A DNA stretch of 64,000 bases. Origin: a bacterium (GTDB lineage Bacteria > JAAXHH01). Shown here piece after piece: positions 4,124 to 62,813 of the stretch. Position 1 is the first letter of the stretch; each line of letters opens with the position of its first letter. Under the pieces are notes generated by a model. The model had not been told where the DNA came from. It saw only the letters and a program-made list of their open reading frames with translations, and searched no databases. The stretch is from assembly GCA_963665755.1 (NCBI GenBank), contig OY762445.1, positions 146,224 through 210,223 on the forward strand. Direction: 5' to 3'. A program made the position numbers and the translations under genes.

Positions 4124-4184
4124 CGGATCGCCAAGGAAGGGGTCAGGACAGGTTGAGGTGGAGAGCTCGCACCGATGTCAGCTT

Positions 4185-7740: not shown

Positions 7741-7845
7741 ACTGTTTCCCGGGTTGGTTTGAACTGGACCGTTTGTACCGATGATGAGCGGTCAATATAG
7801 ACCCGCCGGCGAAGGAAGGTCAAGAGATAGTCCATCGTCCTGTAT

Positions 7846-9618: not shown

Positions 9619-9712
9619 GGCTGGTGAGATTCTGCTTGACGCATGAATCGGAAGCACGGAAATTACGCGGCGACTCCTCCATCGATTCTGTACCCCTGTT
9701 ACGGGGGGCGTA

Positions 9713-10450
9713 TTGCATACCAGCGATCGCATAACGCAATCGGATTTCGAGTATCTCCGGCTGCAGGATACCGGGCCGGTGGGCATATCATTTTCCGATG
9801 TGTATCCCGATTACCATCCACAGGATCGCGTGGGGTTTGTTTGCCCCCGGCTGGAAGACGGTGTGCTCGGGCTGTGCGCTGCCGTCCTGGGCCTGGCGAC
9901 CGGGTTCTACGATCGGCTCCGGTCGAAAGGGAACGAATTCTTCGACTATCCACTGCACCACGCCTTCATCGGAGGGCGGGAGGCGCGGGTACGCACGCGA
10001 AGCGGGGATCTGGACCTGTCCATCGGGGAGATGGGAAGCGCCTGGGGATGGCTGGACGTCTGGCCGGAGACCAACTGGCATCTCTGCCCTGCGACTCCGG
10101 AAAAAATGCTCGAGGCGTTGTTTCGTCACCAGGTCAACCGGGTATGCTGGCCGGCTTCGTTCATGCCGGGTTCCGTAGAGAATCCGCTTTCGCATTACGC
10201 GTATAAGCTGTTGAGCGGCAGGCTGAAATCAGTCTGGTATTACGACTGCGGGGACGGGAACCTGGAAGTCCGGGCATCGGGTTCCGCGGCTGACGTCATC
10301 CAGGAGAGCCTGGAACGTCTTCCCCATGGTGCAGCGGTTAGGAACCAAGCGTCGGAAATTCCATGCGGCCCATGGATTGGAAACCATTTCAAAACAGTGA
10401 AACCCCAGGCATTTCTTGAAGATATGGCGGTCTGCTTTACTGATGATTGA
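9713..10450 (+). CDS. hypothetical protein
   Basis: 245-aa ORF with genome-typical GC3 codon bias. No recognisable motif. Sits 100 bp upstream of the PhyH-HEAT gene on the same strand. Confidence 0.4.
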   Translation: MHTSDRITQSDFEYLRLQDTGPVGISFSDVYPDYHPQDRVGFVCPRLEDGVLGLCAAVLGLATGFYDRLRSKGNEFFDYPLHHAFIGGREARVRTRSGDLDLSIGEMGSAWGWLDVWPETNWHLCPATPEKMLEALFRHQVNRVCWPASFMPGSVENPLSHYAYKLLSGRLKSVWYYDCGDGNLEVRASGSAADVIQESLERLPHGAAVRNQASEIPCGPWIGNHFKTVKPQAFLEDMAVCFTDD

Positions 10451-23266: not shown

Positions 23267-24451
23267 TCAACTGCCAGCCGCCCCGGCCGCTTTGCTGAAG
23301 TCTCTTCCGGGCTTTGCAGCCGGCCGGGTCACGGGGATGTCCCGCATGACTTCGAGGAACCGGTCCACGTCACCGTCCGTATTGTAGAAATGGGTGGAAA
23401 CACGGGCTCTTCCCACTCCGCCATAGGCTCCGAAGATCAGTACGTTCTGATCCTCCAGGGCCTGGGTGACGGCGTTGACATCCTCGGCGGTAAAACAGAC
23501 GTTGCCTGCCCGTTCCTTGGGCGCCCTGGGCGTGATGACTTCCCAGCCCAACTCCGTCAGGCCATCCCATACGCGGGTACTCAACCGCAGCACGTGGTCC
23601 TCGATCCGGTCGATGCCGATGCCCAGCAGGCAGTCGAGGGCGTTGTCCAGGATGTAAACCCCGATCCAGGTCTCGTTGCCTGGCGTAAACCTGCTGGCAT
23701 CCGCCCGGGGAATGTATGCGGAGGGTTCCTTCCAGTCGGGAAGATAGGCCGGAGTGTGCCAGCCCACAAAGGGAGGACTGAGTTCGGGTACACGTTCCCG
23801 GTTCCAGTAGAATATGCCCACGCCATGCACGGCCATGAGCCACTTGTAGCAACTCGACACGACGAAGTCCGCGTATCTCGCTTTGATCGGAACGGCGCCT
23901 GCGGAGTGGGTCACGTCGAGGCAGAGCAGGGCGTTCTTGCGATGCACGAGATCGGACAATTCCGGTAGTGGAAGACGTTGGCCCGTGAAGTAACTGACAT
24001 GACTCACGTTGACCACCCTGGTGTTCTCATCTATTGCTTTGTCAAGTTCATCCAAGTCTATGCGCCAGTTGTTGTTTTCAACGATCCGAAGCTCCACGCC
24101 CCGCTTCTTCAACAGGGTCCATGGAAGCACGTCCGAGGGAAACTCCACGTCGGCAACCACCACGTTGTCACCGGGTTTCCAGTCCAGGCCGTAGACGAGC
24201 AGGTTGATGCCCTCCGATGTAGAGGTCAGGAAACCAATATCATCGGCCGCGACGCCGAATAGACATCCGACTTTTTCCTTGCATTCCCCGGATACCACCT
24301 CGAGCCGCCTGCGTCCCTCTTCTCCCAGCAGCTTGTCCTCGAAGAAACGGTGGACCGCGTCACCGTGCGTTTTCAGCATAGGCGACTCGCCGCCTGTACA
24401 CAGGTGGGTAATCCCCTGGGTTCCAATGAACTCGGATTGATCGATCAACAT
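23267..24451 (-). CDS. class-V aminotransferase-fold PLP-dependent enzyme (cysteine desulfurase/kynureninase-like)
   Basis: SCYKWL PLP-lysine motif. AGGAGA SD before ATG at 24451. The longer ORF-track start at 24604 has no SD. Confidence 0.7.
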   Translation of the reverse strand: MLIDQSEFIGTQGITHLCTGGESPMLKTHGDAVHRFFEDKLLGEEGRRRLEVVSGECKEKVGCLFGVAADDIGFLTSTSEGINLLVYGLDWKPGDNVVVADVEFPSDVLPWTLLKKRGVELRIVENNNWRIDLDELDKAIDENTRVVNVSHVSYFTGQRLPLPELSDLVHRKNALLCLDVTHSAGAVPIKARYADFVVSSCYKWLMAVHGVGIFYWNRERVPELSPPFVGWHTPAYLPDWKEPSAYIPRADASRFTPGNETWIGVYILDNALDCLLGIGIDRIEDHVLRLSTRVWDGLTELGWEVITPRAPKERAGNVCFTAEDVNAVTQALEDQNVLIFGAYGGVGRARVSTHFYNTDGDVDRFLEVMRDIPVTRPAAKPGRDFSKAAGAAGS

Positions 24452-24746
24452 CGGTTTCTCCTGGTGAACATGGTGCGGTAATGATGCGTCTGAACCGACA
24501 TTACAAAATAGGGCGCTACGCCATCGGTGTACAGCAAATTCAACGCGGATCTTTCCCTGTGTGCCCCATCCCTTGTCCCGCCGATGGATATTTGATCCGA
24601 CCATGAAATCACGGACCCTGAACTCATGCCCGAAGATGCATCAGCGGAACTTTCAATAAATCGAACGAGTGCTTATTTTAGTTGGTCGCATGTTGTCACG
24701 CTCTATATTGGAATCAACTAGATCACTCCTCCCCCGGTTACGTGTT

Positions 24747-25727
24747 ATGGTTCTTGATTTCCACACCCATTTCTATACCTCCGCTTACCTTGACGAGATC
24801 GAAAAGGGAGGATACCAGGCGGTGCTGGTCAGGGATACCGACGGCAATCGCCTGCTGAAGCTGGATGGCGATTACAGCATGATCGCGCCGGGTCATTTCG
24901 ATGCCGACCGGGTGATCGAGCACATGGACCGGCATGGCGTGGAACGGCAACTCCTCACCTTTTCCATCCCGGGACTGCACGTCGAGGAGCCCGATGCCGG
25001 CCGCCGTCTCGCCCGGGTCGTGAACGAGGCTCTGGCCGAAACCGTCACCCGCCATCCCGACCGGCTGTCGGCCCTGGCCGTCCTTCCCCTGCAGGATCCG
25101 GCCGCTTCAGCGGCGGAACTGGTCCGCGCCGTGGAGTCGCTGAACCTGCGGGGCGGGCTGCTGTTCTCGAACATAAACGGCAAGTCCCCGGGGGATTACG
25201 TGTTTCACGAACTCTATGCCGCCGCGTCGACGCTGGACGTACCGCTTTTCCTGCACCCTACCAGTCCACCATCGATAAAACCATTTTTGCAGTACAGGCT
25301 TACGCCCATTGCGGGATTTCCCTTCGACACCACCCTGGCAGCCATCCAATTGGTGCTTAGCGGAACGATGGCGGCTTTCCCCGACTTGAAGATCGTACTC
25401 GGCAACCTGGGAGGGACCATCCCGTTTCTTGCGGGCCGGATCGATCAGGGGTATATTTCCTATCCCGAGGCCAGCGAAAAGCTGGACCGGCCACCGTCTG
25501 CATACCTCAGGAACATGTACTTCGAATCCGCGGGCATGCCCAGCGGCGGGGCGCTTCGCCTGGCGATCGACTTCGCCGGTGTCGATCGCGTGATGTTCGG
25601 TTCAGACTTCCCCCAGCAGATCGCCGATGTCGACCTGGGACTTAGAATCATTGAAGAACAGGGGCTGGATGAAGCGGACAGGCAGCGAATCGTCGGCCGG
25701 AACGCGGCAGGTCTTTTGAAGATATAA
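24747..25727 (+). CDS. amidohydrolase-2 family metal-dependent hydrolase (ACMSD-like TIM barrel)
   Basis: N-terminal D-x-H-x-H (LDFHTHFY) and a distal FGSDFP motif. Start ambiguous among 24669, 24690 and 24747. Confidence 0.65.
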   Translation: MVLDFHTHFYTSAYLDEIEKGGYQAVLVRDTDGNRLLKLDGDYSMIAPGHFDADRVIEHMDRHGVERQLLTFSIPGLHVEEPDAGRRLARVVNEALAETVTRHPDRLSALAVLPLQDPAASAAELVRAVESLNLRGGLLFSNINGKSPGDYVFHELYAAASTLDVPLFLHPTSPPSIKPFLQYRLTPIAGFPFDTTLAAIQLVLSGTMAAFPDLKIVLGNLGGTIPFLAGRIDQGYISYPEASEKLDRPPSAYLRNMYFESAGMPSGGALRLAIDFAGVDRVMFGSDFPQQIADVDLGLRIIEEQGLDEADRQRIVGRNAAGLLKI

Positions 25728-25748
25728 GGCTGTTCACGGGTAAGATTT

Positions 25749-25808
25749 AAATACCGTAATGCCAGGTAAAATACCGTAATGCCAAGCAAAATACCGTAAT
25801 GCCAGGCA
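25749..25808. repeat. 3 x 20-bp AT-rich tandem direct repeat (AAATACCGTAATGCCARGYA) in the polA upstream region
   Basis: Three adjacent units read directly: aaataccgtaatgccaggta / aaataccgtaatgccaagca / aaataccgtaatgccaggca. Confidence 0.9.
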
Positions 25809-25893
25809 AACAAGCTATAACAACAACGGCCGTGGATGGTGCGGGTTGCACCCGCCGCGGATCGGTTCCCTCGAAGCCGGAGCTCTAAACCTG

Positions 25894-28656
25894 ATGACCG
25901 AGTCTCAGAAGACCCTCTTTCTCCTGGATGGCATGGCCCTGGCCTACCGCGGTCATTTCGGCTTGATCCGCAACCCGAGGATGACCTCGACGGGCATGAA
26001 CGTTTCCATGGTGTTCGCCATCGCCAATACCATTCTGGGCATTCTGAACAAGAACAGGCCCACCCACATCGCCGCGGTGTTCGACACGCCCGAACCCACC
26101 CACCGGCACAAGCAGTACGCCGAGTACAAGGCGCAGCGGGACGCCATGCCCGAGGACCTGAGTATAGCTCTGCCCTACCTGTTCCGGTTGATCGAAGGTT
26201 TCAACATCCCGGTGATCCGCGTGCCCGGCTGGGAGGCCGACGACGTGATCGGCACCCTCGCGAAACAGGCCGACGAAGCGGGGTATACTACTTTCATGGT
26301 CACGCCGGACAAGGACTACGCGCAACTCGTCTCGGAGCAGTCCTTCATCTGCAAGCCCGGGAACACCGGGGACAACTTCGAAACCATGGGTGTGGATGAC
26401 GTGCTGGAGAAATGGGGGATCGAACGGATCGACCAGGTAATCGACATGCTTGGCCTGATGGGTGACGCCAGCGACAATGTGCCCGGCGTTCCGGGAGTCG
26501 GCGAGAAGACCGCGCAGAAGCTCATCGCACAGTTCGGTTCCGTGGAGAATCTGCTTGAGAACACGGAACAGTTGAAGGGCAAGCAGAAAGAGCGGATCGA
26601 GGAAAGCCGGGATATGGCCCTGTTATCGAAGAGTCTCGTCACCATCGAACGGAACGTCCCGCTCGAGGTCACGCCGGATTCGTTCACCGTGAAAGACAGG
26701 CGCGATGAGGACCTGAAGAAGCTGTTCGTCGAACTGGAGTTCAATACCCTGGGCAAGCGGCTATTCGGCGACGACTTCTCGGCGGCGCCAAGGTTGACCG
26801 TCGCCGGCAGCCAGGAAGACCTGTTCTCCGATGACCAGTTGAAGACGATTGCGGACGTGAAGCACGATTACCGGTGCGTCGATAGCCCCGAATCCCGCGC
26901 CGCGCTCATCGCAGCACTGTCCCGTGCCTCTTCTTTCTGCTTCGACATGGAGACGACCAGCCTTGATCCCAAGACCTGCGAGATCCTCGGTTTTGCCTTC
27001 GCGATCGAATCCCATACCGGATTCTACGTGCCCATGCCTGACGGACGGGAGGATGTACTGCGGGTCGCAGACGAATTCCAATTCCTCTTCGACGATACCG
27101 GCAAGGAACTCATCGGGCACAACATCAAGTTCGATCTGTCCGTGCTCCGGTGGCACGGCATCACGGTGTCCTGCCGCATCTTCGATACGATGCTCGCAGC
27201 CTACGTGACCGTGCCGGACCTGCGGAGGACCATGGACTACCTGTCGCAGGCCCTCCTGGGCTACACGCCGATCTCCATCACCACCCTCATCGGCGAGAAG
27301 GGCGAAGAGCAGGGCACGCTCAAGGATGCACCGCTGGAGAAAGTCGTCGAATACGCGGCGGAAGACGCGGATGTCACGCTGCAGCTCGCGGCATTGCTGC
27401 GGCCCCGGATCGGCGAGATGAACCAGGATACCGTCTTCACCGACATCGAGTGTCCCCTGGTGCCCGCCCTGGTGGAAATGGAACACGAAGGCGTGCGGAT
27501 GGACGTGGGGCAGCTAGAGCACCTGTCCAGCCTGCTGGACGAGGAGATACAGCGGTCCTCGGACCGGATCACCGAACTGGCAGGGGAACCCGTCGATTTC
27601 AATTCGGCAAAACAGCTTGGTCACATCCTCTTCGACAAGTTGCAGATCGATCCAAACGCAAAGCGCACAGCCAAGACCGGGCAGTATTCAACGGCGGAAG
27701 CCGTGCTCCGCAGACTGGCGCCCAAGCACGAAATCGTGGAGCAGATCCTTCATTACCGGATGTGTACCAAGCTCAATTCCGTGTACGTGAGCCAACTGCC
27801 CCATTCCGTATTCCAGCAAACCGGTCGGGTACATACCTCCTATGAACAGGCCGTGATTGCCACCGGCCGAATCCAGTCCCACGGACCCAACCTACAGACC
27901 ATTCCGGTCCGCACGGAGATGGGCCGCCAGATCCGAAAGGCCTTCGTGCCCCGGGACGACGACTTTTTTTTGATGGCTGCGGACTATTCCCAGATCGAAC
28001 TGCGCATCGCGGCCGAACTCAGCCGGGACGAAGGCATGATGGAGACCTTCATTCAGAAAGAGGACATCCACTCCGCTACGGCCATGAAAATCTATGACGT
28101 GGATCATGACAGGGTGACAGACGAGATGCGCAGGCGCGCCAAGACCGTCAATTTCGGCATCATCTACGGCATCTCCGCCTTCGGGCTGGCCGAACGCCTC
28201 AACATCCCGAGGGGACAGGGCCAGGAATTGATCGACCAGTACTTCGCGAAGTATCCCGGCACGCGCAAATACATGGACGAAACGATCAAATTCGCGGAAG
28301 AGAACGGTTTCGTAGAGACCATGACCGGTCGGCGTCGGTACCTGCGTGACATCAATTCGCGGAACAACACGACCAAGCGCGCCGAGGAGCGTGTCGCCAT
28401 CAACTCCCGCATCCAGGGCACGGCGGCCGACCTGATCAAGCTGGCCATGACCCGGATCCACGAAGAACTGAAAAATCGGGAATGCCGGACGCGCATGCTT
28501 TTGCAGGTGCATGATGAGCTCGTATTCGACCTGCATAAATCGGAAGAAGACTCCCTGCCCGGGCTGATCGAGGAGTGCATGCGGGGCGCGCTGCCCATGA
28601 CCGTGCCCATCGAGGTGGAGATCGGCATCGGCGCGAACTGGCTGGAAGCGCACTAG
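25894..28656 (+). CDS. polA: DNA polymerase I
   Basis: 5'-3' exonuclease, 3'-5' exonuclease and polymerase domains. Polymerase motifs RRRAKTVNFGIIYG and LLQVHDELV present. Confidence 0.9.
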   Translation: MTESQKTLFLLDGMALAYRGHFGLIRNPRMTSTGMNVSMVFAIANTILGILNKNRPTHIAAVFDTPEPTHRHKQYAEYKAQRDAMPEDLSIALPYLFRLIEGFNIPVIRVPGWEADDVIGTLAKQADEAGYTTFMVTPDKDYAQLVSEQSFICKPGNTGDNFETMGVDDVLEKWGIERIDQVIDMLGLMGDASDNVPGVPGVGEKTAQKLIAQFGSVENLLENTEQLKGKQKERIEESRDMALLSKSLVTIERNVPLEVTPDSFTVKDRRDEDLKKLFVELEFNTLGKRLFGDDFSAAPRLTVAGSQEDLFSDDQLKTIADVKHDYRCVDSPESRAALIAALSRASSFCFDMETTSLDPKTCEILGFAFAIESHTGFYVPMPDGREDVLRVADEFQFLFDDTGKELIGHNIKFDLSVLRWHGITVSCRIFDTMLAAYVTVPDLRRTMDYLSQALLGYTPISITTLIGEKGEEQGTLKDAPLEKVVEYAAEDADVTLQLAALLRPRIGEMNQDTVFTDIECPLVPALVEMEHEGVRMDVGQLEHLSSLLDEEIQRSSDRITELAGEPVDFNSAKQLGHILFDKLQIDPNAKRTAKTGQYSTAEAVLRRLAPKHEIVEQILHYRMCTKLNSVYVSQLPHSVFQQTGRVHTSYEQAVIATGRIQSHGPNLQTIPVRTEMGRQIRKAFVPRDDDFFLMAADYSQIELRIAAELSRDEGMMETFIQKEDIHSATAMKIYDVDHDRVTDEMRRRAKTVNFGIIYGISAFGLAERLNIPRGQGQELIDQYFAKYPGTRKYMDETIKFAEENGFVETMTGRRRYLRDINSRNNTTKRAEERVAINSRIQGTAADLIKLAMTRIHEELKNRECRTRMLLQVHDELVFDLHKSEEDSLPGLIEECMRGALPMTVPIEVEIGIGANWLEAH

Positions 28657-28669
28657 CAAGCCAGCCGTA

Positions 28670-28741
28670 ACTGGAAGATGGACAGCGTTGGGAAGGTGGA
28701 CAACGACTGGAAGATGGACAGTGATCTGGAGATTCTGATCG
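28670..28741. repeat. about 3.5 x 18-bp tandem direct repeat (ACTGGAAGATGGACAGYG) between polA and the Rieske-fusion operon
   Basis: Units read directly: actggaagatggacagcg / ttgggaaggtggacaacg / actggaagatggacagtg / atctggagattctgatcg. Confidence 0.85.
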
Positions 28742-28796
28742 CAGGCAGCCCGGAAGACATCAGCGAAAATCACACAAACAGAAAGGCAAGGATTCC

Positions 28797-30587
28797 ATGA
28801 GCACAGGAAACGGTTGGATCCGGGTCGGAACTACGACCGACATAGCGCCCGGGGAATCCCGCGCCGTTAGAATCAGCGAGGGCCGCAGCGTTGCCCTCTT
28901 CAACGTCAACGGCCGGATACATGCTACCGACAACCAATGTCCCCACATGGGGTTTCCACTGACCCGCGGCGTGGTGAAGGACGGCATCCTGACGTGCGAC
29001 TGGCATGGCCGCAGTTTCGATCTGGAAGGCGGCGGCTGCTTCAATTACGAATGCGACGACCTGGAGACGTTCCCAGTCGACATTCGTGGAGATGAACTGT
29101 GGGTGCAGGCCGGGGACGCCACCTACAAGCGGCGGGACCAGCACCTGCAACTGCTCTGGGAGGGCCTGCTGAGCGGGGACTCGTGGACGATTTCGAAGGC
29201 CACTGCCCTCCTTCTGTCCGGTGGTGTTTCAGAACACGACATCGTGCAGTTGATCTTGCGCCACCTGGGCCGTCACGTCGCTTCGGAACGGGACGCGGGC
29301 GGCGGCGGCGATGTCGTTTCACTCCTGGTCTCCGGTCTTGAAGTCGGCAAAAGGTTTGACGGAGAAGACAGGCTGATGGCGTTGTCGCTGGCAGGCCGCG
29401 CAGCGTCGGGGAGGGCGTCGGAAAGGCTCGAGGTCATTACGCTGCCCCCGCCGGTCCGCTGGGATCAGATAGACGACTGGGTACGCATGTTCTCCCGAAA
29501 CATGCAGGATTTCCGGATCGAACGGTGTTTGCACACGGCCTGCGAAAACGGCCACCAGGACCATATCTTCAAATTGTTGTTCGAGTGTGCGGTGGCGCCG
29601 TACTTCCTCGGATTTTCCCGTAACGTGGCCAGCCTGGGTGATCTCGCAAGGGTGGTGGATACCTTCGGATGGGGCGAGGCGTCCGAACTGGTCTGCAACC
29701 TCGGCGCAAAGATGACGGGGCGAGGGCGCGACGAGCCGGAGCGGTTCCACCGGGATGCCGTCCGGCTGCTCACCGAACTCGCGCCTGAACTGGAATCACA
29801 TGATTACGACGGGAACACGCGCGCGGAATACGACGAGAACGCCCTCGTAGACGCCCTGTTGAGCGTCGATGTCGAGCGGTCTTTCGAAGCCGTGACACGG
29901 GTCCTGCGGGACGGCGTGGCGCTCGAGCGTCTTATCACGACCTTCGTGCTGCTCGCCGCCGATCGCATGGCGCGTACGCCGGTGAACGTCGACGCGGGGT
30001 GGGGACCGCTGTCCACCGAGTTCAACCTGGCGGCTTCCCTGCGACATGTCCACGCATACGGTGGGCCCGCTGCAGCGGCGAAGGGCCTGTACCATGCGGC
30101 CTGGCAAATTTTCGACAACCGATGGATCAATATCCCCGCACGGTCGCTCGACGAACCCCTTCCCGCCCATCGAACGGACACACCGGACGCGGCAGCCGCT
30201 TCGGATCTCATTGTCCATTCCATCAAGTCGCTGGATATCCACGGGGTGGGCGACCAGGTGGTGGGTTACCTCAACAGCGGATTCGACGGGTCGGACCTGC
30301 TCAAGGAAGTGGGACGGGCGATCCTGTGGGACGATACCAACATGGAGCTCCTTCCCACACTGCGCGTCGCGTTCAACGAATGGGAAGGTTCAGGGGGTGG
30401 CGCAGGCGGCGGAGACGCAAGCGGGGGTGGCGCAGGTGGAAAGGGCCATCCGTCCCGGTATCAGCTCCTGGTGGGACTGGTGCGCTACGCCACGGATGTG
30501 CGATTGAACAAGAACAGCATGGCCTCCATCAACACGGCCATGCGATTTTCTGAAGGCCGGACGACCGTAGAGGTGTTCGACGAATAA
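28797..30587 (+). CDS. Rieske [2Fe-2S] domain fused to an uncharacterized ~480-aa domain (paralog A)
   Basis: Rieske ligands C-P-H-M-G ... C-D-W-H-G within the first 100 aa. Remainder unassignable but shares conserved blocks with paralog B (RHxGRHVAxER, LFECAVAPYFLG, LAADRMARTPVN, GLYHAAWQ, HPSRxQLLVGL). Contains a Gly-rich insert. Confidence 0.8.
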   Translation: MSTGNGWIRVGTTTDIAPGESRAVRISEGRSVALFNVNGRIHATDNQCPHMGFPLTRGVVKDGILTCDWHGRSFDLEGGGCFNYECDDLETFPVDIRGDELWVQAGDATYKRRDQHLQLLWEGLLSGDSWTISKATALLLSGGVSEHDIVQLILRHLGRHVASERDAGGGGDVVSLLVSGLEVGKRFDGEDRLMALSLAGRAASGRASERLEVITLPPPVRWDQIDDWVRMFSRNMQDFRIERCLHTACENGHQDHIFKLLFECAVAPYFLGFSRNVASLGDLARVVDTFGWGEASELVCNLGAKMTGRGRDEPERFHRDAVRLLTELAPELESHDYDGNTRAEYDENALVDALLSVDVERSFEAVTRVLRDGVALERLITTFVLLAADRMARTPVNVDAGWGPLSTEFNLAASLRHVHAYGGPAAAAKGLYHAAWQIFDNRWINIPARSLDEPLPAHRTDTPDAAAASDLIVHSIKSLDIHGVGDQVVGYLNSGFDGSDLLKEVGRAILWDDTNMELLPTLRVAFNEWEGSGGGAGGGDASGGGAGGKGHPSRYQLLVGLVRYATDVRLNKNSMASINTAMRFSEGRTTVEVFDE

Positions 30588-30611
30588 CGAACAACGGAGA
30601 GGTAACGGAAT

Positions 30612-32363
30612 ATGTCAACGGAACAAAACGGATTCGTACGGGTGGCGGCAACGGACGAAGTGGTGGACGGCAAGCCCAAGGCCGTCAAGGTGGAGGGAAG
30701 GAGCATCGCCCTCTTCAAGCATAACGGGTCGGTATTCGCCACGGACAATCAATGTCCGCACATGGGATACCCGCTCACGAGAGGGCGCGTTCGCAACGGC
30801 GTGCTGACTTGTGACTGGCACGGCTGGAGTTACGACCTCGGCGGCGGCGGTTGCTTCACCGGTGGGTGCGATGACCTGGAGACTTTTCCGGTCGAGGTAC
30901 GAAACGGCGACGTGTTCGTGAACGTTAGCGAAGGCGGATCCAAACGGTCGGACGCACACTTCCTGCTCTTGAAGGAAGGACTCTATTCAACGGATCAGTG
31001 GACCATCTCGAAGGCCGTGGCCATCATGCTGGCCCGGGGCGTGTCCGAGACGGACACGTTGAACCTCATCATCCGGCACGGCGGCCGTCACGTCGCGACT
31101 GAACGGGGCGCCAACGATGGTGGTGGAGAGGTCTCCGATTTCATCAATGGGATCAAGGTGGCCCGACAGTACGAGAGCGACGACCGGATCATCCCGCTGA
31201 CCTTTGCCGCCCACGGGCTATCCGGTCGCGCGGGGGACCGGCCGAGCATCCAGCGGTTGCCCGATCCGATCACCTGGGAGAAACTCGAGGGATGGATCCG
31301 GGTGTTCTCCACAGACAAGCAATGGGAAGGCATCGAGAAGTGCCTGATTACCGCCCGCCGGCTGGGCGGACACGATGGCGAGATCCTGCCGCTGCTCTAC
31401 GAATGCGCCGTGGCCCCGCATTTTCTCGGCAATTCGAACAACCTGCTCAACATCGGCTACATCGCGGAAGTGCTCGAGGAATTCGGCTGGGACGAAGCAG
31501 AGGAACTGGTCTGCAACCTCTCGGCCAAGATCCTGGGACAGGAGCGGGGACTGCCCGACGAGATCAGGCAGTCGGCCATCGACCGGTTCATCGCCGACAC
31601 CGAAACGCTGGATTCCATCGGCGACAGACCATCTGACGGTTCCGACGCAGCCTTCGACGAAGACGCCTTCGCGGAGGGTCTGGTAAGCGGCGAAATCGGA
31701 CCGACCTTCGGCGTGGTTACCCAGGCGCTCAAAGACGGCGTTTCTATCGAGCGCATCGTGACGACCATGGTGGTGCTCGCAGCGGACCGCATGGCGCGCA
31801 CGCCGGTTAACATGAACCCGGGATGGGGAGGCCTGGTCCGCGAGATGATGATGGCCAGCGCAATCCGAAAGGCTTTGAGGTACGGTGGGCACCGAGTTGC
31901 CGCCCAGGGTCTGTACCACGTCGCCTGGCAATTCTACGGCGACCGGTGGCTGAATATCACCCATCGTCCGTTGTCCGAGTCGCGTGGAGATCTGCAGCCG
32001 GGAAGCGCGGACGAGGCCGAAGCGATCGAAGGCGTCGTTTCATCCATTGAGCAGATCCAGATCAGGGAAATCGGAAGACAGACCCGGGACTACCTGCGGT
32101 CGGGGTACTCGGGCGACGCGTTGCTCCGGGAACTCGGTCTCGTGATCCTCAAGGACGACAACGGCCGGAACATCCTGTCCACGCTGCGCACGATCTTCGA
32201 CGAATGGACCTGGTGCGAAGATCACCCTTCGCGCAACCAGTTGCTGGTCGGCCTCGCACGCTGGGCCACCGACGTACGCCGCGCCACGGGAAGCCAGTCT
32301 GCCGCCGCTACCGCCCTGCGATTCGCCAAGGGACAGACCGCGGTGGACTTGTACGAGGCGTAA
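30612..32363 (+). CDS. Rieske [2Fe-2S] domain fused to an uncharacterized ~480-aa domain (paralog B)
   Basis: GGAGAGG SD. The same Rieske motifs (CPHMGYPL ... CDWHGWSYD) and the same conserved C-terminal blocks as paralog A. 24-bp gap after paralog A. Confidence 0.8.
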   Translation: MSTEQNGFVRVAATDEVVDGKPKAVKVEGRSIALFKHNGSVFATDNQCPHMGYPLTRGRVRNGVLTCDWHGWSYDLGGGGCFTGGCDDLETFPVEVRNGDVFVNVSEGGSKRSDAHFLLLKEGLYSTDQWTISKAVAIMLARGVSETDTLNLIIRHGGRHVATERGANDGGGEVSDFINGIKVARQYESDDRIIPLTFAAHGLSGRAGDRPSIQRLPDPITWEKLEGWIRVFSTDKQWEGIEKCLITARRLGGHDGEILPLLYECAVAPHFLGNSNNLLNIGYIAEVLEEFGWDEAEELVCNLSAKILGQERGLPDEIRQSAIDRFIADTETLDSIGDRPSDGSDAAFDEDAFAEGLVSGEIGPTFGVVTQALKDGVSIERIVTTMVVLAADRMARTPVNMNPGWGGLVREMMMASAIRKALRYGGHRVAAQGLYHVAWQFYGDRWLNITHRPLSESRGDLQPGSADEAEAIEGVVSSIEQIQIREIGRQTRDYLRSGYSGDALLRELGLVILKDDNGRNILSTLRTIFDEWTWCEDHPSRNQLLVGLARWATDVRRATGSQSAAATALRFAKGQTAVDLYEA

Positions 32364-32389
32364 CATGGGTTGAATCGGTTGCGAGGTGA

Positions 32390-33690
32390 ATGGGCATGGA
32401 CGCCGATCCGTCTGACAAGCGTCTTTACGAACGCTATCATCAAGACCCCGACGAGGCCGACCGGATACTGTTCGGCCGCCGGACTCACCCGGACCGTCGC
32501 GGTTTCCTTAAGAATGCGGGCCTGGCAACCATGGGCGCGTTGGTCGGCGCCGCGATTCCCTTTCATCGCAACGTCCCTGCCCATTTCATTCCGGTCGTGC
32601 TCGCCGCAGAGAACACCATTCAGGGCAAGGACGGCCTGACGGTCCTCAATGATCGCCCCATGTGCGCGGAAACCCCGCCACACCTCCTCGACGACGCCAT
32701 AACGCCCACCGCAAGGCATTTTGTTCGCAACAACGGGTTAGTTCCCGAGGATCTGGACGCCTCGCGCTGGAAGCTTGCGATCGACGGACTGGTCGACAGT
32801 CCGTTGATACTCAACCTCGAGGATCTTGAAGGCCGGTTCGAGGTCGTCACCCGGGCGTTGACCCTGGAATACGCGGGAAACGGCCGGGCATTTTTTAACC
32901 CGAAGACGAAAGGCGAACAGTGGACCTACGGCGCGGTGGCCTGCGCTGAATGGACGGGGGTGCGGCTATCCGACGTACTGACGGCCGCCGGAATGAAGCG
33001 CGAAGCAGTCTACACCGCGCACTACGGCGCAGATACCCACCTTTCCGGTGTGGAGGGCCGGACTTCCCATCTCCCGCGGCGTACCGATCGAAAAGGCCAT
33101 GGATGGACACAGCCTCATCGCCTTCGCCCAGAACAGCCGACCGATACACCCGATGAACGGCGGCCCGTTGCGCCTGATCATACCGGGATGGCTCGGGTCA
33201 TGTTCCCATAAATGGCTGAACCGCATAGAGATACGGGACCAGGTGCACGACGGGCCCAAGATGACAGGCACCTCGTATCGATTGCCGCGACGGGGCATCG
33301 AACCCGGCGAGATCGTGGACGAGAAAGACTTCCAAATCATAGAAAGCATGCCGGTGAAGTCGCTCATCACGCACCCGGCGACGGGGCACAGATCGAATGA
33401 CAGTTCAGTGGAAATAAGGGGCCATGCGGACAGGTAAGGGGCGCGTCTCCGCGGTTGATCTTTCGGTCGACTTCGGGGCGACCTGGAAGCGAGCGACGCT
33501 GGAGGAACCGGTCAACGCCTTCGCCTGGCAGAACTGGCGCGCTTCGTTTTCGTTGCCGCAGGATGGGTATTACGAGGTTTGGGCGAGGGCCACCGACTCT
33601 CTGGGCGTCAGCCAGCCCCACGCCATCGCGTGGAATCCGGGTGGCTACCTAAACAACGCCATGCACCGCGTCGCGGTGTACGTGGGGTAA
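32390..33690 (+). pseudogene. sulfite-oxidase-family molybdopterin oxidoreductase (Tat-exported), disrupted by two +1 frameshifts
   Basis: Twin-arginine motif RRGFLKNAGLATMGALVG. The Oxidored_molyb region reads in frame 1 to about 33050 (..HYGADTHLSG), continues in frame 2 (LPISRGVPIEKAMDGHSLIAFAQN..GGPLRLIIPGW) to about 33425, then frame 3 carries the Mo-co dimerisation domain (GKGRVSAVDLSVDFGATWKRA..WNPGGY). Confidence 0.6.
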
Positions 33691-33790
33691 GTAAACTGTC
33701 CTTCCGACGCACTTATTGTATTCGATAAAGCTCTCATGAATCCTACTAATCCGAAAGGGGATGGATCGATCGCTAAGTTTCTATTGACAG

Positions 33791-33808
33791 TGTATCAAAT
33801 TTGATACA
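33791..33808. promoter_or_regulatory. perfect 18-bp palindrome TGTATCAAATTTGATACA (candidate TA-module operator), preceded by TTGACA
   Basis: Read directly; lies in an AT-rich patch about 20 bp upstream of the toxin-remnant ORF. Confidence 0.35.
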
Positions 33809-33828
33809 CGTTATGGAACAGCATTTAC

Positions 33829-33930
33829 ATGTTGCGTGTTGTTTTCTACAAGACTGAAACTGGACGCGAGCCAGTGCGTGACAGGACCTACAGCCTGCAA
33901 TTTCGCGATCGGCAAAGCTGGGAGAAGCGA
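33829..33930 (+). pseudogene. N-terminal remnant of a Gp49-like/HigB-type toxin
   Basis: MLRVVFYKTETGREPVRD matches the conserved N-terminus of the phage Gp49-like RelE/ParE toxin family from memory. The rest of the about 110-aa toxin is missing and the frame runs into the antitoxin gene. Confidence 0.35.
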
Positions 33931-33934
33931 ATAG

Positions 33935-34222
33935 ATGACTATAGATACCCAACATGTTGGTGGCAACTTCGATGGATATTTGAAAGAAGAAGGTCTAATT
34001 GAGGAAGTAGAACAAGTAGCAGCAAAGCGTGCAGTTGCGTTACAAGTAAACCAATTCATGTCGAATCAGGGACTGAGCAAGACCGAAATGGCCCGACGTA
34101 TGCACACGAGTCGTGCCTCACTGGATCGCCTGCTGGATCCGGAGAATGGATCTGTCACACTGCAAACCCTGGAACGGGCGGCCGATGCACTGGGACGGCG
34201 CTTGCATATCTCGCTGGTTTGA
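33935..34222 (+). CDS. XRE-family HTH antitoxin (HigA-like)
   Basis: 95-aa protein with an HTH core (LSKTEMARRMHTSRASLDRLL), the typical partner of Gp49-like toxins. Low-GC context. Confidence 0.6.
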   Translation: MTIDTQHVGGNFDGYLKEEGLIEEVEQVAAKRAVALQVNQFMSNQGLSKTEMARRMHTSRASLDRLLDPENGSVTLQTLERAADALGRRLHISLV

Positions 34223-34329
34223 ACGTGACCTCGAAGGACTTCTGTAACGCAGTACTGATCTAGTTCACCATCCTGCGAGTACTCAATGTTGTGATCGTCA
34301 AATCACTGTGGACGGTTAGTCTCGCCTAC

Positions 34330-35184
34330 CTACACGCTATCCACCGCGGGGCGCGGCAGATCGGCCCAATGGCCCGTTGGATCGGATCCCTTGACGATCA
34401 CGCCTTCCTTGTTCCAGTTGAGTTCGGCGCGGACGGAGGCGGCGCAGAACCTGAGCGTCAGGCCGCAGCGGCGGCGGTCCGACGTGTTGAGTCCCGATCC
34501 GTGCAATAGCAGGTCGCTGTGGAGCGAGATCTCTCCCGCCTTGAGCTCGATATCTACCTCGGTCCCGAACATCCCCACTTCTTCCACGGTCTGGTTGAGC
34601 ACGTTGTTCTCGGCTTCTTCGCTCAGGTGGTAGGTCAGGTGCCCATGGTGATGGGATCCCGACACGAAGCGCATGCAGGCGTTGCCCGTGTCCGCGTCGT
34701 CGATGGCCAGCCAGGCGGTCACCGTTTTCGACGGCGAGAGGGGCCAGAAACTGGCGTCCTGGTGCCAGTTGACGATCTTGCCGTCCCCGGGAAGCTTGCA
34801 GAAGAAATGGGCGCCCCAGCCCACGATGTCGTCGCCCAGGAGGTCGCTGATGTAGGCGACGATTCTCGGCTCGTTCATGATGTCGTGGACCATGCCAGAT
34901 TTCAGGTGGGCCGATATGATGGAGTAATTGTGGTCCCCCCGCGCCATGACTTTTTCGATCATGCCGTCGAATTCATTCCGTATGTCGCCGATCTCCGCAT
35001 CCGAGTAGATCCTGAACGGCTTCAGGTAGCCTTGCTCATTGAACATGTCGATCTGCGTGCTCGATAACACGGCCGGATGCTCGTTGCGTACCGGGTGGTA
35101 CTGCAGGTCGCGGGACATGCGGACCAGGTCTTCCGGGGTAGGCATCTGCTTGAAACGGGTGTCCTGCAGGGTCGTCTGCGCCAT
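34330..35184 (-). CDS. phytanoyl-CoA dioxygenase (PhyH) family non-heme iron oxygenase
   Basis: H-x-D (NWHQDASFW) and a distal His (SLHSDLLLHGSG) in PhyH-like context; 284 aa. Confidence 0.8.
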   Translation of the reverse strand: MAQTTLQDTRFKQMPTPEDLVRMSRDLQYHPVRNEHPAVLSSTQIDMFNEQGYLKPFRIYSDAEIGDIRNEFDGMIEKVMARGDHNYSIISAHLKSGMVHDIMNEPRIVAYISDLLGDDIVGWGAHFFCKLPGDGKIVNWHQDASFWPLSPSKTVTAWLAIDDADTGNACMRFVSGSHHHGHLTYHLSEEAENNVLNQTVEEVGMFGTEVDIELKAGEISLHSDLLLHGSGLNTSDRRRCGLTLRFCAASVRAELNWNKEGVIVKGSDPTGHWADLPRPAVDSV

Positions 35185-35223
35185 GGTTTATTCTCCTGTT
35201 GGCCGTTGGCCCGATCGCCGTCT

Positions 35224-36204
35224 TCAGCCGTCGTTATTCGTCTTCAGAAATACGTTCTCGGATTCCCTTTCCCAGGTTTCGTTGTAGACCAGTGGCCTCG
35301 GCCTGCGTGGCGGGTAATCCGGCGGGGGATTATCCGGTTCGTTCAGTTCCAGGCGGTCGCGTCCCCGGGGCGCTTCGTACCAGTGCTTCTCCCGTTCGGC
35401 CGCTTCGATCTCCCTGCGGAGGATGAACTCCGCGTGATCGAATCCGGAGATCGCCGCGTCCGCCAGAAACACGCGATGCACCTCGCGGCCGTCCCAGGTT
35501 GCCAGATCCGGCAGGACCACGGGGCCCGTGCAGACCTGAAACTCGGCGTCTTCCTCGTTAATATTGATCAGATCCACGGGAAATTCAAGGGTAACCCGCA
35601 TGTTCCGGTCCGCCTGGCCTGCTTGGTCCGTTTGGTCCGCCTGGCCTGCTTGGTCCGTTGGGTCCGTTTGGTCCGCCTGGTCTGCTTGGCCCGTTTGGCC
35701 CGCCTGGTCTGCTTGACCCGGCTGGTCCGGATCATGGCAGTCGGTCCAGGCGATCCTGCCATTCATGAGATCCCGGTTGATCGTCGCGTCCACTACGGCC
35801 CGCGCGTCAGTCAGGGTTTCCTCGGAATCATACTGCCTGATATCGATTTCGTGGGCCTGGAACTGTTTTTCAAGCGGAGTACCCCTGTATTCGGCGGCCT
35901 CGTTACTCGGTCTTCGCGATATAGGGATGCTCTGACTTCGGCTAAACGCCATGCGCCATTCGTCGCTGGGAATCTGAAAGAGGTTTCGGCGGGCAATCGT
36001 GTATTCCGAGCGACACGGAGCGCCCAGGTATATTTTGGTACGGTGTCCCGAGTCGTCCTCCACGGTACAGGCCGCCTCGAGGTGGAACCGCACCTGGTAG
36101 GCCTGTCCCGGCACCCCGACAAAACCGCCCGTATACTTGAAAACCGGATCGGGTTTCCACGGCCAGGATTTCCAGTGGAAAGAAGAGCGATGGAATGCGA
36201 TCAT
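35224..36204 (-). CDS. hypothetical protein with internal (DQAGQAD)n low-complexity linker
   Basis: 326-aa ORF of balanced composition. The antisense 475-aa ORF is Arg/Val/Leu junk. 40-bp gap to the downstream PhyH gene on the same strand. Confidence 0.5.
35606..35730. repeat. about 4.7 x 27-bp tandem repeat (GGTCCGCCTGGCCTGCTTGGTCCGTTT) inside the CDS 35224-36204
   Basis: Read directly. On the coding (minus) strand it encodes (QTDQAGQAD)-type nonapeptide repeats. Confidence 0.85.
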
Positions 36205-36500
36205 GGGCTAGGTCTTCGGCTTGGCTCTTGTGGCATTCGCATACCGGGCCATCCGGGCTTGAAATGCGCTTCTCGGATTTGTACCGATTTGATGCGGCAA
36301 TGTCCCAAAATGACCTATTCCACCCAAGCAGGCAATACAAAACTGTGTTTTCGCCGTGCGGACAGCGACCGTGATTTTTGTTGCGAGCGTGGGGTCCGCA
36401 GGATACATTGGAAGTACGATTCAAGCGGCGAACAATGGCGCGCAGTTCCGGAAAATGACGGTGCGCAGCCCCATCGTTCACATCGGTCCACGGACTGGAA

Positions 36501-39182
<2,682 letters not shown>

Positions 39183-39239
39183 CCGGCGTAACGCGTAACT
39201 CCGCGTAACGCGTACTCCGCGTCCGCTGTTCGGTCGTGA

Positions 39240-40055
39240 TCAGGCGTACAGAGCGTTGCTGAAGGCGCGGCGATACTGGCGCGTCGTAGGGTCGCGCTCA
39301 CCGAGCAAACCGAAAATCGCCACGCAACTCCGGCGGGCGCCGTCGTCGTCGTAGGCTCTATTCCTCTCCAGCACTTCGATGAAACGCTGCAGGGCAAGAT
39401 CATATGCGCCCGACCTGAGGAATTCAATGCCCTGGACATAGACCGGCTTGACCGGATCTTCCTCCAGACCTTCCGGCGCGTCGAGGTGAAGGAACAGGCC
39501 GGCTATGGTCCGCATGGCCTCCGCCGAGTCATGAAATTCCGTACCAGGTTCGATCGGTCCCAACAGGTCCAGGCTCCGGCCGGGGTCTTCATTCAGAATA
39601 GTGCGTGCCAGGCATACCGCCGCCTGTTCGTTGTCCGGCTCGGACGACAGGACTTCCTCGAGCAATTCGCGGGCCGCTGCCATATCTCCTTCTCCAAGAC
39701 GCAGGAGCGCTACCTCCAGTTGTTGCGCGTGGGGACTCGGCAGCGCCTTTTTGAGCCACTGTTCGATCATGGGCTCCGGCAGTGCGCCCGTGAACTCGTC
39801 TCTTACCTCGCCGTCTACGAACATCTTGACGTTCGGTATTCCCTGAATCCCGTATTGCCGGGCAATTTCCGTGTGAACTTCGGTGTTTACCTTCACGAGT
39901 TCCCACCGGTCCCGGCTGCGTTCGGCTATGGATTCGATCACGGGTCCGAGCATCTTGCAGGGCCCGCACCATTCCGCCCAGAAATCGACCAGCACGGGGA
40001 TCGTGCGGCTTCGTTCCACGACCTCAGTATTGAAGTCCGAAACCTCGTAGTTCAT
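39240..40055 (-). CDS. thioredoxin-domain protein with C-terminal TPR-like domain (YbbN/CnoX-type chaperedoxin)
   Basis: WCGPC active site in an N-terminal Trx fold, followed by about 150 aa of helical TPR-like sequence. Confidence 0.75.
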   Translation of the reverse strand: MNYEVSDFNTEVVERSRTIPVLVDFWAEWCGPCKMLGPVIESIAERSRDRWELVKVNTEVHTEIARQYGIQGIPNVKMFVDGEVRDEFTGALPEPMIEQWLKKALPSPHAQQLEVALLRLGEGDMAAARELLEEVLSSEPDNEQAAVCLARTILNEDPGRSLDLLGPIEPGTEFHDSAEAMRTIAGLFLHLDAPEGLEEDPVKPVYVQGIEFLRSGAYDLALQRFIEVLERNRAYDDDGARRSCVAIFGLLGERDPTTRQYRRAFSNALYA

Positions 40056-40160
40056 CGCCAGTCCTCACCGGTTCACGGCGCGCTTGGTGACAAGCCGTCT
40101 GTTGACATACCTGTTGGCCGGGGTTATCTTTCGATGCGGTTTACCCGGGTGAACGGACCT

Positions 40161-40856
40161 TCATCCGTCGTCTCCGAAGAGTCTTCGTCGCGTATCGATC
40201 ACGATATCGGCCATGTTTTCCCACGACGTGCGGGACGTGTTGAAAACCATGTGGTACAGCGTCGGGTCCGTCCAGTCGCGGTGATAGTTGTGCTGCAAGT
40301 ACAATGCCCGCTGCCGGTCCTTCTCCTTGATGAGTTCAGCGGCCCGGTCATGCGCAAGGTTCATCTCGTCCATAATCACGTCGACCCGGTATTCGAATGG
40401 CGCGATGAACCGGGTGTGGAAGACGTTCTTGCTGTCCGACAGGATGCACTGGCTGCCGCGCCCGACGATGATGATATGTTTTCTGTCGGACAGCGAACGG
40501 ATGGTATCCTGGAGGATCTGGAGGTATTCTCCCCGATCCAGAAACGTGTTCTTGAGCGAAGTGGGATCCTTCGTTCCTTCGTCGTCCCCCGGTACATAGG
40601 GCCAGATGAGCGGCGGATATTCAGGGGACAGGGAGTAGACAGTTGTGGGGGTGAACAATTCGCCGAGAAATCGCCTGATGGTCGATTCTCCCACTTCGTC
40701 CAACTGCTCGACGACATCTTCCGAAACGCCCGCGGTATGAGCGATCTCGGCAATGAGTTCCTTGTCCACGCAATCATAGCCGAGGCGGTCCGCGATGATT
40801 TTCGCGATGTCCTTCCCGCCGCTGCCGTATTCTCTGGCAACCGTTATGATGCTCAT
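40161..40856 (-). CDS. cytidylate kinase-like family P-loop protein
   Basis: N-terminal P-loop (AREYGSGGKDIAKIIADRLGY) in the Cytidylate_kin2-like arrangement. Confidence 0.6.
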   Translation of the reverse strand: MSIITVAREYGSGGKDIAKIIADRLGYDCVDKELIAEIAHTAGVSEDVVEQLDEVGESTIRRFLGELFTPTTVYSLSPEYPPLIWPYVPGDDEGTKDPTSLKNTFLDRGEYLQILQDTIRSLSDRKHIIIVGRGSQCILSDSKNVFHTRFIAPFEYRVDVIMDEMNLAHDRAAELIKEKDRQRALYLQHNYHRDWTDPTLYHMVFNTSRTSWENMADIVIDTRRRLFGDDG

Positions 40857-40921
40857 GATGGACTCCTTAGTTGCGTGCAGCCGTCGAAGGAGGCGAGTAA
40901 ACCGTTAGAAAGCGCCCCGCC

Positions 40922-41770
40922 ATGCCCCTTCATGAACCGTTGGACGAGACCGCGGGCTTCCTGGGTTCGCAGGGGTTTGCAACGGCCCGTTTCGGGATGA
41001 TCCTGGGCACTGGATTCGGTGCTTGCGTCCAGGCAGTCGAACAGAAATCCGTTGTGCCCTACGGTTCTATCCCCCATTTTCCGGTGTCGACCGTTAAGGG
41101 CCACGAGGGCAACCTCGTCTTCGGCGCCATGGGCGAGGCATCCGTGATTGTGATGCAGGGCCGTATCCATCTGTACGAGGGATACGACGCGAGCCAGATT
41201 GCGTATCCCCTCGAGGTGATGCGCCGGTTCGGCGTCGAGGTTCTGATCGTGACCAATGCCGCCGGTGGACTGAATCCGCGGTACGCGCCGGGTGACCTCA
41301 TGGTCGTTCGCCAGCATATCCATCCCATTGGTCGTCACATGATGGGAAACCTGACTCCAGGTACAGACCGTGATCCCTGTTACGATGAGGATTTGAGGGC
41401 ATCGCTTCTACAGATTAGTATACAAAGAAATCGGTCTGTTCAACAGGGAATTTTAGCATGGATGCCAGGACCTTCTTTCGAGACCCGTGCCGAAATCTCT
41501 CTGCTGAAAACGCTGGGAGCAGATGCGGTGACCATGTCTACCGTACCGGAAGTACTGGCAGGCCGGGGGCTTGGTATGCGGACCGCGGCCGTATCGTGCA
41601 TTTCCAATGTCTGGACCGGTCGAACCGGCGAATCCGCAGACGTCGCCGACGTAGTGTCAACGGTTGAATCGTCGGCCGGCCTCTGTTCGGATCTGCTGGT
41701 CCGCCTGGTCCGCCTGGTCCGCCAGATCGGCCTGGCCGGTCGGGACCGCAGGGTGGCTGGCCAACATTAA
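40922..41770 (+). CDS. purine nucleoside phosphorylase (PNP-I family)
   Basis: GTGFG phosphate-binding motif and the SMSTVPE ... conserved core. The C-terminus is extended by an (LVR)3 repeat. Confidence 0.8.
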   Translation: MPLHEPLDETAGFLGSQGFATARFGMILGTGFGACVQAVEQKSVVPYGSIPHFPVSTVKGHEGNLVFGAMGEASVIVMQGRIHLYEGYDASQIAYPLEVMRRFGVEVLIVTNAAGGLNPRYAPGDLMVVRQHIHPIGRHMMGNLTPGTDRDPCYDEDLRASLLQISIQRNRSVQQGILAWMPGPSFETRAEISLLKTLGADAVTMSTVPEVLAGRGLGMRTAAVSCISNVWTGRTGESADVADVVSTVESSAGLCSDLLVRLVRLVRQIGLAGRDRRVAGQH

Positions 41771-41811
41771 GACGGTTGTAATTTAACATTTATAACGCAA
41801 GCGAGTCGAAT

Positions 41812-42687
41812 ATGGCCTGGTTTGAAAGAAGACAGCGGGGTTTAAACCCGCAGAAGCGCAAGGAAATCCCGAAGGGGTTATGGGTAAAGTGCGACAAGTG
41901 CGACGCCATGCTGTACAAGGCGGAGCTCGAACGGGACTTCAATGTGTGCACCCAGTGCGGGTTTCATTTCAAGATCGGCCATCAGGCGTATATCTCCCTG
42001 ATCATGGACACGGACACCTTCGAGGAGACCGACACGGATCTGCGCACCGTCGATCCGCTCGAGTTCAAGGAGAAGGAGAACTACCCGGACTACATGAAGC
42101 GGTACCAGAAAAGGACGGGCATGAGGGAGGCCGTGGTGTCGGGCACCGGCCGCATCGACGGAAGGCTCGTATCCCTGTCCATCCACGATGGTTCCTTCCT
42201 GGCCGGGAGCATGGGGTCCGTGGTCGGCGAGAAAGTGACGCGATCCATCAGAAGGTCGCTCGACCTGGAGATACCGCTGCTTGTGGTCGCCACTTCGGGG
42301 GGAGCCCGCATGCAGGAAGGCATCCTCTCCCTCATGCAGATGGCGAAGACTTCACTCTGGCTGAACCGCCTGTCGGAGGAGAAGATCCCTTTTGTCGTCG
42401 TGATTACGAATCCGACCATGGCCGGCGTGATGGCGAGTTATGCTTCGCTGGGAGACTTCACCCTGGCAGAGCCGGGCGCCATGATGGGCTTCGCCGGTGG
42501 AAGGGTGATCGAACAGACCATAGGGTCGAGTCTGCCGGAAGGATTCCAGACCGCCGAGTTTTTCCTGACCAAAGGTTTCGTGGACCAGGTCGTACCCAGG
42601 ACCAGTTTGCGGGAGAAGCTGGTCACGATCCTGGGTTTTTTCCCGGATCGGGAGAAGAAGGAAGCACAGGCAAAAGAAGCGCCTTGA
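41812..42687 (+). CDS. accD: acetyl-CoA carboxylase carboxyltransferase beta subunit
   Basis: N-terminal C4 zinc ribbon (CDKCDAMLYK..CTQCGFH) followed by the carboxyltransferase domain. Confidence 0.9.
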   Translation: MAWFERRQRGLNPQKRKEIPKGLWVKCDKCDAMLYKAELERDFNVCTQCGFHFKIGHQAYISLIMDTDTFEETDTDLRTVDPLEFKEKENYPDYMKRYQKRTGMREAVVSGTGRIDGRLVSLSIHDGSFLAGSMGSVVGEKVTRSIRRSLDLEIPLLVVATSGGARMQEGILSLMQMAKTSLWLNRLSEEKIPFVVVITNPTMAGVMASYASLGDFTLAEPGAMMGFAGGRVIEQTIGSSLPEGFQTAEFFLTKGFVDQVVPRTSLREKLVTILGFFPDREKKEAQAKEAP

Positions 42688-62125: not shown

Positions 62126-62137
62126 GGAGTATACCAA

Positions 62138-62800: not shown

Positions 62801-62813
62801 ATAGAGGCGCAAC

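Follow-up and report, generated by a model that had tools for sequence, protein, structure and literature searches.

A SorA-like, sulfite-oxidase-family pseudogene carrying three lesions in a probably sponge-associated Gemmatimonadota bacterium

A 64,000-nucleotide stretch of bacterial DNA (the window: contig OY762445.1 of assembly GCA_963665755.1, positions 146,224 to 210,223 of the forward strand) carries a sulfite-oxidase-family gene, here called the SO gene, whose coding sequence is broken over three reading frames. We conclude with high confidence that it is a genuine and recently formed pseudogene, apparently fixed in its Gemmatimonadota lineage; the organism is a member of that phylum and probably sponge-associated. 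Judged by its sequence, the ancestral product is predicted to have been a SorA-like sulfite dehydrogenase exported by the twin-arginine translocation (Tat) pathway, a molybdenum (Mo)-cofactor enzyme of the sulfite-oxidase family. Three independent mutations are present in the gene: a Cys-to-Tyr exchange at the Mo ligand, the insertion of one G, and a 2-nt deletion that includes the loss of a Trp. Each of these would be enough to abolish function, and we infer that no functional enzyme is made from the window allele. The loss would have arisen through ordinary mutation while selection for periplasmic sulfite oxidation was relaxed or absent in this lineage. In kind, the locus is an ordinary pseudogene of a known enzyme family.

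The gene and its three lesions

The pseudogene and its parts are located in the window as follows.
32396..33690, plus strand: whole pseudogene, SorA-like gene of the sulfite-oxidase family with a Tat signal (DNA alignment, tblastn and Pfam; 92% amino acid identity to the orthologue P0001)
32396..33211, plus strand: fragment 1, a 271-aa open reading frame (ORF) in frame 2, homologous to the orthologue up to ~33055 and then running through 52 out-of-frame codons to a TAA stop
32495..32512, plus strand: twin-arginine motif R-R-G-F-L-K followed by a hydrophobic stretch, the signal-peptide part being intact (sequence; TIGR01409 on the orthologue)
32870..32872, plus strand: lesion 1, TGC (Cys) to TAC (Tyr) by G to A at 32871 (DNA alignment, 120 homologues and SorA alignment)
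33055..33057, plus strand: lesion 2, a 1-nt insertion changing GG to GGG and frame 2 to frame 0 (DNA alignment)
33057..33427, plus strand: fragment 2, the middle part in frame 0 (PISRGVPIEKAM ... GGPLRLIIPGW ... VEIRGHA), found by tblastn, with the ORF continuing to a TAA at 33435-33437
between 33427 and 33428, plus strand: lesion 3, a 2-nt deletion changing frame 0 to frame 1 (DNA alignment and tblastn)
33430..33690, plus strand: fragment 3, the C-terminal Mo-co dimerization part in frame 1, called as an 88-aa ORF at 33424-33690

The original prediction, made from the sequence and its ORFs, had described an RRGFLK Tat motif and the characteristic regions of the sulfite-oxidase family lying in three successive frames, and our analysis bears this description out. 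The ORFs at 32390/32396-33211, 33048-33437 and 33424-33690 occupy three successive frames (coordinate mod 3 = 2, 0 and 1), and the intact orthologue P0001 matches the window by tblastn in three high-scoring segment pairs (HSPs) in frames 2, 3 and 1, which cover residues 1-220, 221-344 and 346-430. On the 434-aa frame-repaired product, Pfam detects both Oxidored_molyb (PF00174; 1.8e-47, 161.5 bits) and Mo-co_dimer (PF03404; 6.4e-20). As the gene stands in the window, the Oxidored_molyb domain is divided over fragments 1 and 2 and the Mo-co_dimer domain over fragments 2 and 3, with a Mo-co_dimer match on the 88-aa product (P0123). Family members are recognized by a single uninterrupted frame covering both domains, where the window gene has three. 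The Tat signature (S/T-R-R-x-F-L-K and a hydrophobic region) is represented by D-R-R-G-F-L-K at 32492-32512, followed by NAGLATMGALVGAAIPF; across the homologue alignment RRGFL is invariant and K nearly so, and the orthologue P0001 scores 18.1 bits against TIGR01409 TAT_signal_seq, above the cutoff of 16.7.

The gene is intact in related genomes. Six other Gemmatimonadota genomes (L001/L003, L002, L094, L012, L099 and L100) hold syntenic orthologues of 431-433 aa in a single continuous frame, L001/L003 being OX638340.1, a record named 'uncultured Gemmatimonadota bacterium'. A database search returned more than 100 intact homologues of ~431-433 aa, the nearest of them 92% identical at the amino acid level (P0001). 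Besides the six syntenic orthologues, over 40 intact homologues (425-448 aa) reach an identity of at least 75%. The lesions were defined by DNA-level alignment of the window to the fully syntenic L001 and L002, and all three fall within ~560 bp. A single-base indel had been proposed at each junction between frames. This holds for the first junction; the second is instead a 2-nt deletion with an equal net effect on the frame. The third lesion, the Cys-to-Tyr exchange upstream of both, was absent from the earlier account.

At the position of this exchange all 120 homologues have Cys and the window has Tyr, the Tyr codon aligning with Cys104 of SorA (2blf_A), which we take to be the molybdenum ligand and the counterpart of Cys185 in sulfite oxidase from chicken. 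In animal sulfite oxidase, replacing this Cys by Ser leaves the enzyme inactive, and PDB 3hbg is such a C185S mutant. The window gene has lost the Mo-coordinating Cys (SorA Cys104, chicken Cys185) by which the SUOX fold is recognized. This is the sole window-private substitution at a column invariant across the 120 homologues; a count of one private change at invariant columns is not unusual (30 of 121 sequences have one), and only the position matters. Two further changes, P269L and G250S, lie at columns that seem invariant in a 12-sequence alignment and vary among the 120 homologues. At lesion 3 the orthologues read CATGCGTGGAC or CATGCCTGGAC and the window reads CATGC--GGAC; an invariant Trp codon is lost with the two nucleotides, and residue 345 of P0001 is left uncovered by the tblastn HSPs.

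Reproducibility and age of the broken allele

The broken allele recurs in public data. The exact truncated products P0121 (271 aa) and P0123 (88 aa) are each present on 8 contigs in a public protein collection, and six assemblies (ERZ23492301, ERZ23492361, ERZ12815470, ERZ12815472, ERZ27263417 and Logan ERR3887494) match the window at 100% identity along the entire gene (32396-33690), all three lesions included. Contig names indicate SPAdes- and MEGAHIT-type assemblies in addition to the one Logan assembly. For two of the six, the source samples are SAMEA3642066 and SAMEA3642064; their Illumina project, PRJEB11585, comprises four Spongia officinalis specimens together with seawater and sediment (PMC7883442). 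The surrounding sequence is sound. When ~19.3 kb of coding DNA was aligned to L001, uncompensated coding indels appeared nowhere except in the SO gene, which has two, the remainder being intergenic, compensated within 3 nt or multiples of three; the chance of two random indels both landing in the SO gene is ~0.005. Twelve neighboring genes are equal in length to their L001 counterparts, and tiling of the whole window by ORFs and third-codon-position G+C (GC3) revealed no further split gene, the rest of the window being densely coding and intact. A possible frameshift at 9643-10450 was rejected, as the GC3 frame plot there supports a single frame.

The original prediction had favored genuine pseudogenization over poor sequence quality, and this is upheld: the gene carries disabling lesions relative to intact relatives, and independent assemblies repeat them exactly. 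Its accompanying statement that no other gene in the window shows such breaks stands for frameshifts, by both the L001 alignment and the tiling of the window, and does not extend to the downstream Gp49-type toxin gene, part of which has been deleted. In the window lineage, the broken allele seems to be the only one present. Two pattern scans of Joint Genome Institute (JGI) metagenome contigs found neither intact nor broken alleles of junction 1.

Selection was assessed with pairwise NG86 ratios of nonsynonymous to synonymous divergence (dN/dS) for 12 genes and with parsimony counts of private substitutions. In sister lineages the SO gene is still held under purifying selection. In the window, dN/dS is not raised, and therefore the gene would have been under purifying selection until recently and its inactivation would be recent. 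Eight of the 11 window-private nonsynonymous changes are GC-to-AT transitions. Apart from the broken fragment, the 90% protein cluster has just two members, both intact (90-92% identity); a cluster-mate fragment, P0125 (L098), was considered as a second pseudogenization event and set aside, since its break is an N gap in the scaffold and uninformative.

Several observations weigh against a real and recent inactivation that has become fixed. Separate biological samples are established for only two of the six identical assemblies. The frame-repaired gene has a dN/dS of 0.144 against L001, not above the 0.151 found between two intact orthologues, and the ratio of nonsynonymous to synonymous changes on the window branch, 11:10, does not differ significantly from that on intact branches (Fisher p = 0.5). 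A statistical signature of relaxed selection is thus lacking, which fits a very recent inactivation and is not positive evidence for recency. No allele turned up with only one or two of the lesions, as an intermediate would have.

Synonymous divergence (dS) is very uneven along the syntenic block at 23267-42687 in comparisons with the window. Values are 0.26-0.38 for the SO gene and 0.26-0.29 for the Aminotran_5 and Amidohydro_2 genes; most of the other compared genes have 0.03-0.14, and PolA has up to 0.21. Strains may therefore have recombined, or divergent alleles may be present, at the SO, Aminotran_5 and Amidohydro_2 loci.

Alternative explanations and known relatives

Loss of the enzyme may itself have been advantageous. 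In one form of this idea, which we regard as improbable, periplasmic sulfite oxidation would have been selected against, or made redundant by the holobiont, in a lineage apparently tied to Spongia officinalis, and the triple-hit allele would have swept to fixation while co-existing sister strains retained the enzyme. More broadly, gene loss could be adaptive in a host-associated lineage, for example by stopping periplasmic sulfite oxidation, or the exportable 271-aa N-terminal fragment could have gained a new non-catalytic role; to this pair of possibilities we give a very low probability. The broken allele sits on every recovered contig of the lineage and no near-identical intact allele was found; three lesions have accumulated in one gene between intact neighbors, and the N-terminal ORF survives with its start codon and Tat signal, all of which would be expected if loss or a remnant were favored. 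However, nothing separates selection from drift here, and with contigs of near-clonal identity (100%), fixation could reflect hitch-hiking or a bottleneck. The 271-aa fragment lacks the second half of the Mo-cofactor-binding domain as well as the ligand Cys, and comparable, neutral-looking decay is seen in the neighboring toxin gene.

The original prediction had allowed for programmed or otherwise real frameshifts, and two +1 ribosomal shifts of the kind found at prfB-type sites might in principle restore a full-length enzyme. Both frame changes do run in the +1 direction, and the second site offers a rare AGG codon with a TAA stop within three codons (GCG GAC AGG TAA). However, the break is not conserved, since the six syntenic orthologues and the more than 100 homologues are single ORFs; around the first site (GAG GGC CGG) there is neither a stop or rare codon nor a slippery motif, and frame 2 can be read on through another 52 codons. 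At the second site, AGG TAA is nearby, yet the Trp codon is physically deleted, and even perfect shifting would yield a product that has neither the Mo-ligand Cys nor the invariant Trp. Because the frame is continuous in the orthologues, the first site carries no signal and two essential residues are gone, we reject programmed FRAMESHIFTING, whose probability we regard as negligible. The direction of the frame change is the sole likeness of the window gene to genes of the prfB/RF2 and antizyme type, from which it differs in the lack of conservation of the shift in orthologues, the lack of a recoding signal at the first site and the loss of essential residues.

An assembly or sequencing error hiding an intact ORF of ~431 aa would find some footing in the short G run at junction 1, a context prone to long-read consensus errors, yet this explanation is excluded for practical purposes because six separately assembled contigs, two of them from Illumina samples, reproduce the gene exactly with all three lesions and the flanking ~19 kb of coding sequence is free of uncompensated frameshifts, while lesion 3 lies outside any homopolymer and removes two nucleotides, and lesion 1 exchanges a base in the codon of a catalytic residue.

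Among solved structures, the best match to the enzyme is SorA, the catalytic subunit of Starkeya novella SorAB, a sulfite:cytochrome c oxidoreductase (PDB 2blf; E 3e-48, residues 77-427). The two have in common the Mo-cofactor-binding and dimerization domains, Tat export and the conserved column of the Mo-ligand Cys. The clade to which the window gene belongs has, at 71 of 81 loci, a c-type cytochrome gene of ~218 aa with two CxxCH motifs directly downstream of the enzyme gene (median distance 12 nt), an arrangement likened to that of sorB after sorA. Unlike SorA, the orthologue P0001 scores 231.2 bits against an equivalog cutoff of 600 for NCBIfam NF052245, and it has an N-terminal extension of ~35 residues before the RR motif. 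We place the gene in a separate SorA-like clade because the NCBIfam equivalog cutoffs for SorA, SoxC and SorT are all missed by a wide margin. In contrast to SorAB, a cytochrome c gene is missing next to the Gemmatimonadota copies, and the window copy is dead through the Cys-to-Tyr exchange and the two frameshifts. SoxC, SorT of Sinorhizobium meliloti and the animal and plant sulfite oxidases (1sox, 1ogp) share Pfam domains and fold family with the window enzyme, with sequence matches of 5e-65 for SoxC, 2.5e-58 for SorT and 2e-43 for chicken sulfite oxidase, all scores remaining under the family cutoffs; their partners differ, and the animal enzyme has a haem domain.

As a pseudogene, the window copy resembles those of host-associated or reduced genomes in its multiple independent lesions, its intact sister orthologues, a decaying toxin gene next door and private nonsynonymous changes that are mostly GC to AT. 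It differs from them in that the rest of the 64-kb window is densely coding and intact, a single window giving no genome-wide pseudogene load. We recommend that the locus be annotated as a pseudogene and not be counted as sulfite-oxidizing capacity in metabolic reconstructions of the symbiont. It offers a clean example of early-stage pseudogenization, with three hits and a dN/dS signal that is still absent, and the recurrence of the allele in several metagenomes illustrates how exact-sequence look-ups in public assemblies can settle the question of frameshift versus error without reads. Were adaptive loss the true explanation, the locus would become a natural marker of sulfur partitioning among sponge symbionts, for example of taurine-derived sulfite.

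Rieske genes and other neighbors

The SO gene lies downstream of two Rieske fusion genes, and the original prediction had named the enzyme as the only periplasmic partner candidate for these cytoplasmic proteins. The gene order PolA, Rieske-596, Rieske-583, zero to two inserted genes, SO, PhyH, hypothetical protein, PDH-E1 is common to seven Gemmatimonadota genomes, namely the window lineage and the six with an intact SO gene. The spacer between Rieske-583 and SO is an insertion hotspot: in L012 it holds a gene (6568-7866) whose product is secreted and carries nine Sel1 repeats, and in L099 it holds genes for a 624-aa hypothetical protein and a Fic-domain protein (2984-5986). Conservation of the linkage was thus borne out within the phylum and does not reach beyond it: among 82 loci tested, the Rieske pair occurs upstream of an enzyme of the SO clade in Gemmatimonadota loci only, with 0 of 78 loci encoding the clade outside the phylum having it. 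Conversely, the Rieske tandem module stands without any SO gene in three loci outside the Gemmatimonadota group, including one on a Candidatus Poribacteria record. In the window, the Rieske pair has a dN/dS of 0.05-0.11, indicating strong purifying selection, though the SO gene is dead.

The proposed partnership is not supported, because the Rieske pair occurs without SO and stays under purifying selection where SO is dead; the usual neighbor of the SO clade is, moreover, a cytochrome c gene. The link is lineage-specific synteny only, and the suggested functional tie of the SO enzyme to the Rieske fusions is thereby removed. No adjacent, SorB-like cytochrome c gene was found in the window or in the Gemmatimonadota loci tested (L001/L003, L002 and L012), and tblastn matches to 'cytochrome' in the window proved to be artefacts of ORFs overlapping the SO gene. 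Clade loci without a cytochrome gene also include alphaproteobacterial ones. Genes for extracytoplasmic function (ECF) sigma and anti-sigma factors often lie near loci of the clade. A promoter and terminator scan around the operon gave chance-level results only.

The C-terminal domains of the Rieske fusions had no Pfam match at E<=10, and a PDB profile search with them matched only Rieske domains. As a lead only, the fusions are candidate self-contained cytoplasmic oxygenases of undescribed architecture, in which case they would be the more interesting genes of the locus. A gene of the PhyH family (phytanoyl-CoA dioxygenase-like) turns up repeatedly, at most a few kb from the Rieske pair, in the Gemmatimonadota loci and, outside that group, in L095 and in L097, the latter from Candidatus Poribacteria; it is a more plausible functional neighbor of the pair than the SO gene.
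Window 34330-35184, minus strand: PhyH-family gene
L095 2477-3268: PhyH-family gene
L097 1543-2316: PhyH-family gene
At 34440-34447, a number of short-read contigs break off or diverge. In scaffold L084, 48 bp at 34441-34488 inside PhyH (minus strand) are missing and the gene is frameshifted there; the cause would be either micro-heterogeneity among strains or a breakpoint of the assembly.

Immediately downstream of the SO gene is a toxin-antitoxin (TA) pair with a broken toxin.
33829-34002, plus strand: remnant of a Gp49/HigB-like toxin gene, adjoining the antitoxin gene at 33935-34222
The toxin is intact in L001 (11429-11773; 114 aa, Pfam Gp49 3.2e-18). In the window ~230 bp are deleted and only ~20 N-terminal codons are still recognizable, and L002 carries an independent 1-nt deletion in the same gene; the 95-aa helix-turn-helix (HTH) antitoxin is intact in all three. 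The toxin deletion shows that local decay is real. Upstream of the pair, right after a TTGACA hexamer, lies a perfect 20-bp palindrome, GTGTATCAAATTTGATACAC, at 33784-33809. L001 and L002 keep most of it, and it probably acts as the operator/promoter of the TA pair.

The hypothetical protein at 35224-36204 (minus strand) contains a low-complexity repeat of the (A/T)DQ(A/T)GQ type, especially at 35560-35720. It has no Pfam match, and its length varies among relatives by in-frame indels (326, 340, 294, 285, 306 and 265 aa). Toward the end of the window, G+C falls to 0.48 at 62001-63000 against ~0.60 elsewhere, and a 220-aa ORF of the EcsC family lies at 62138-62800.
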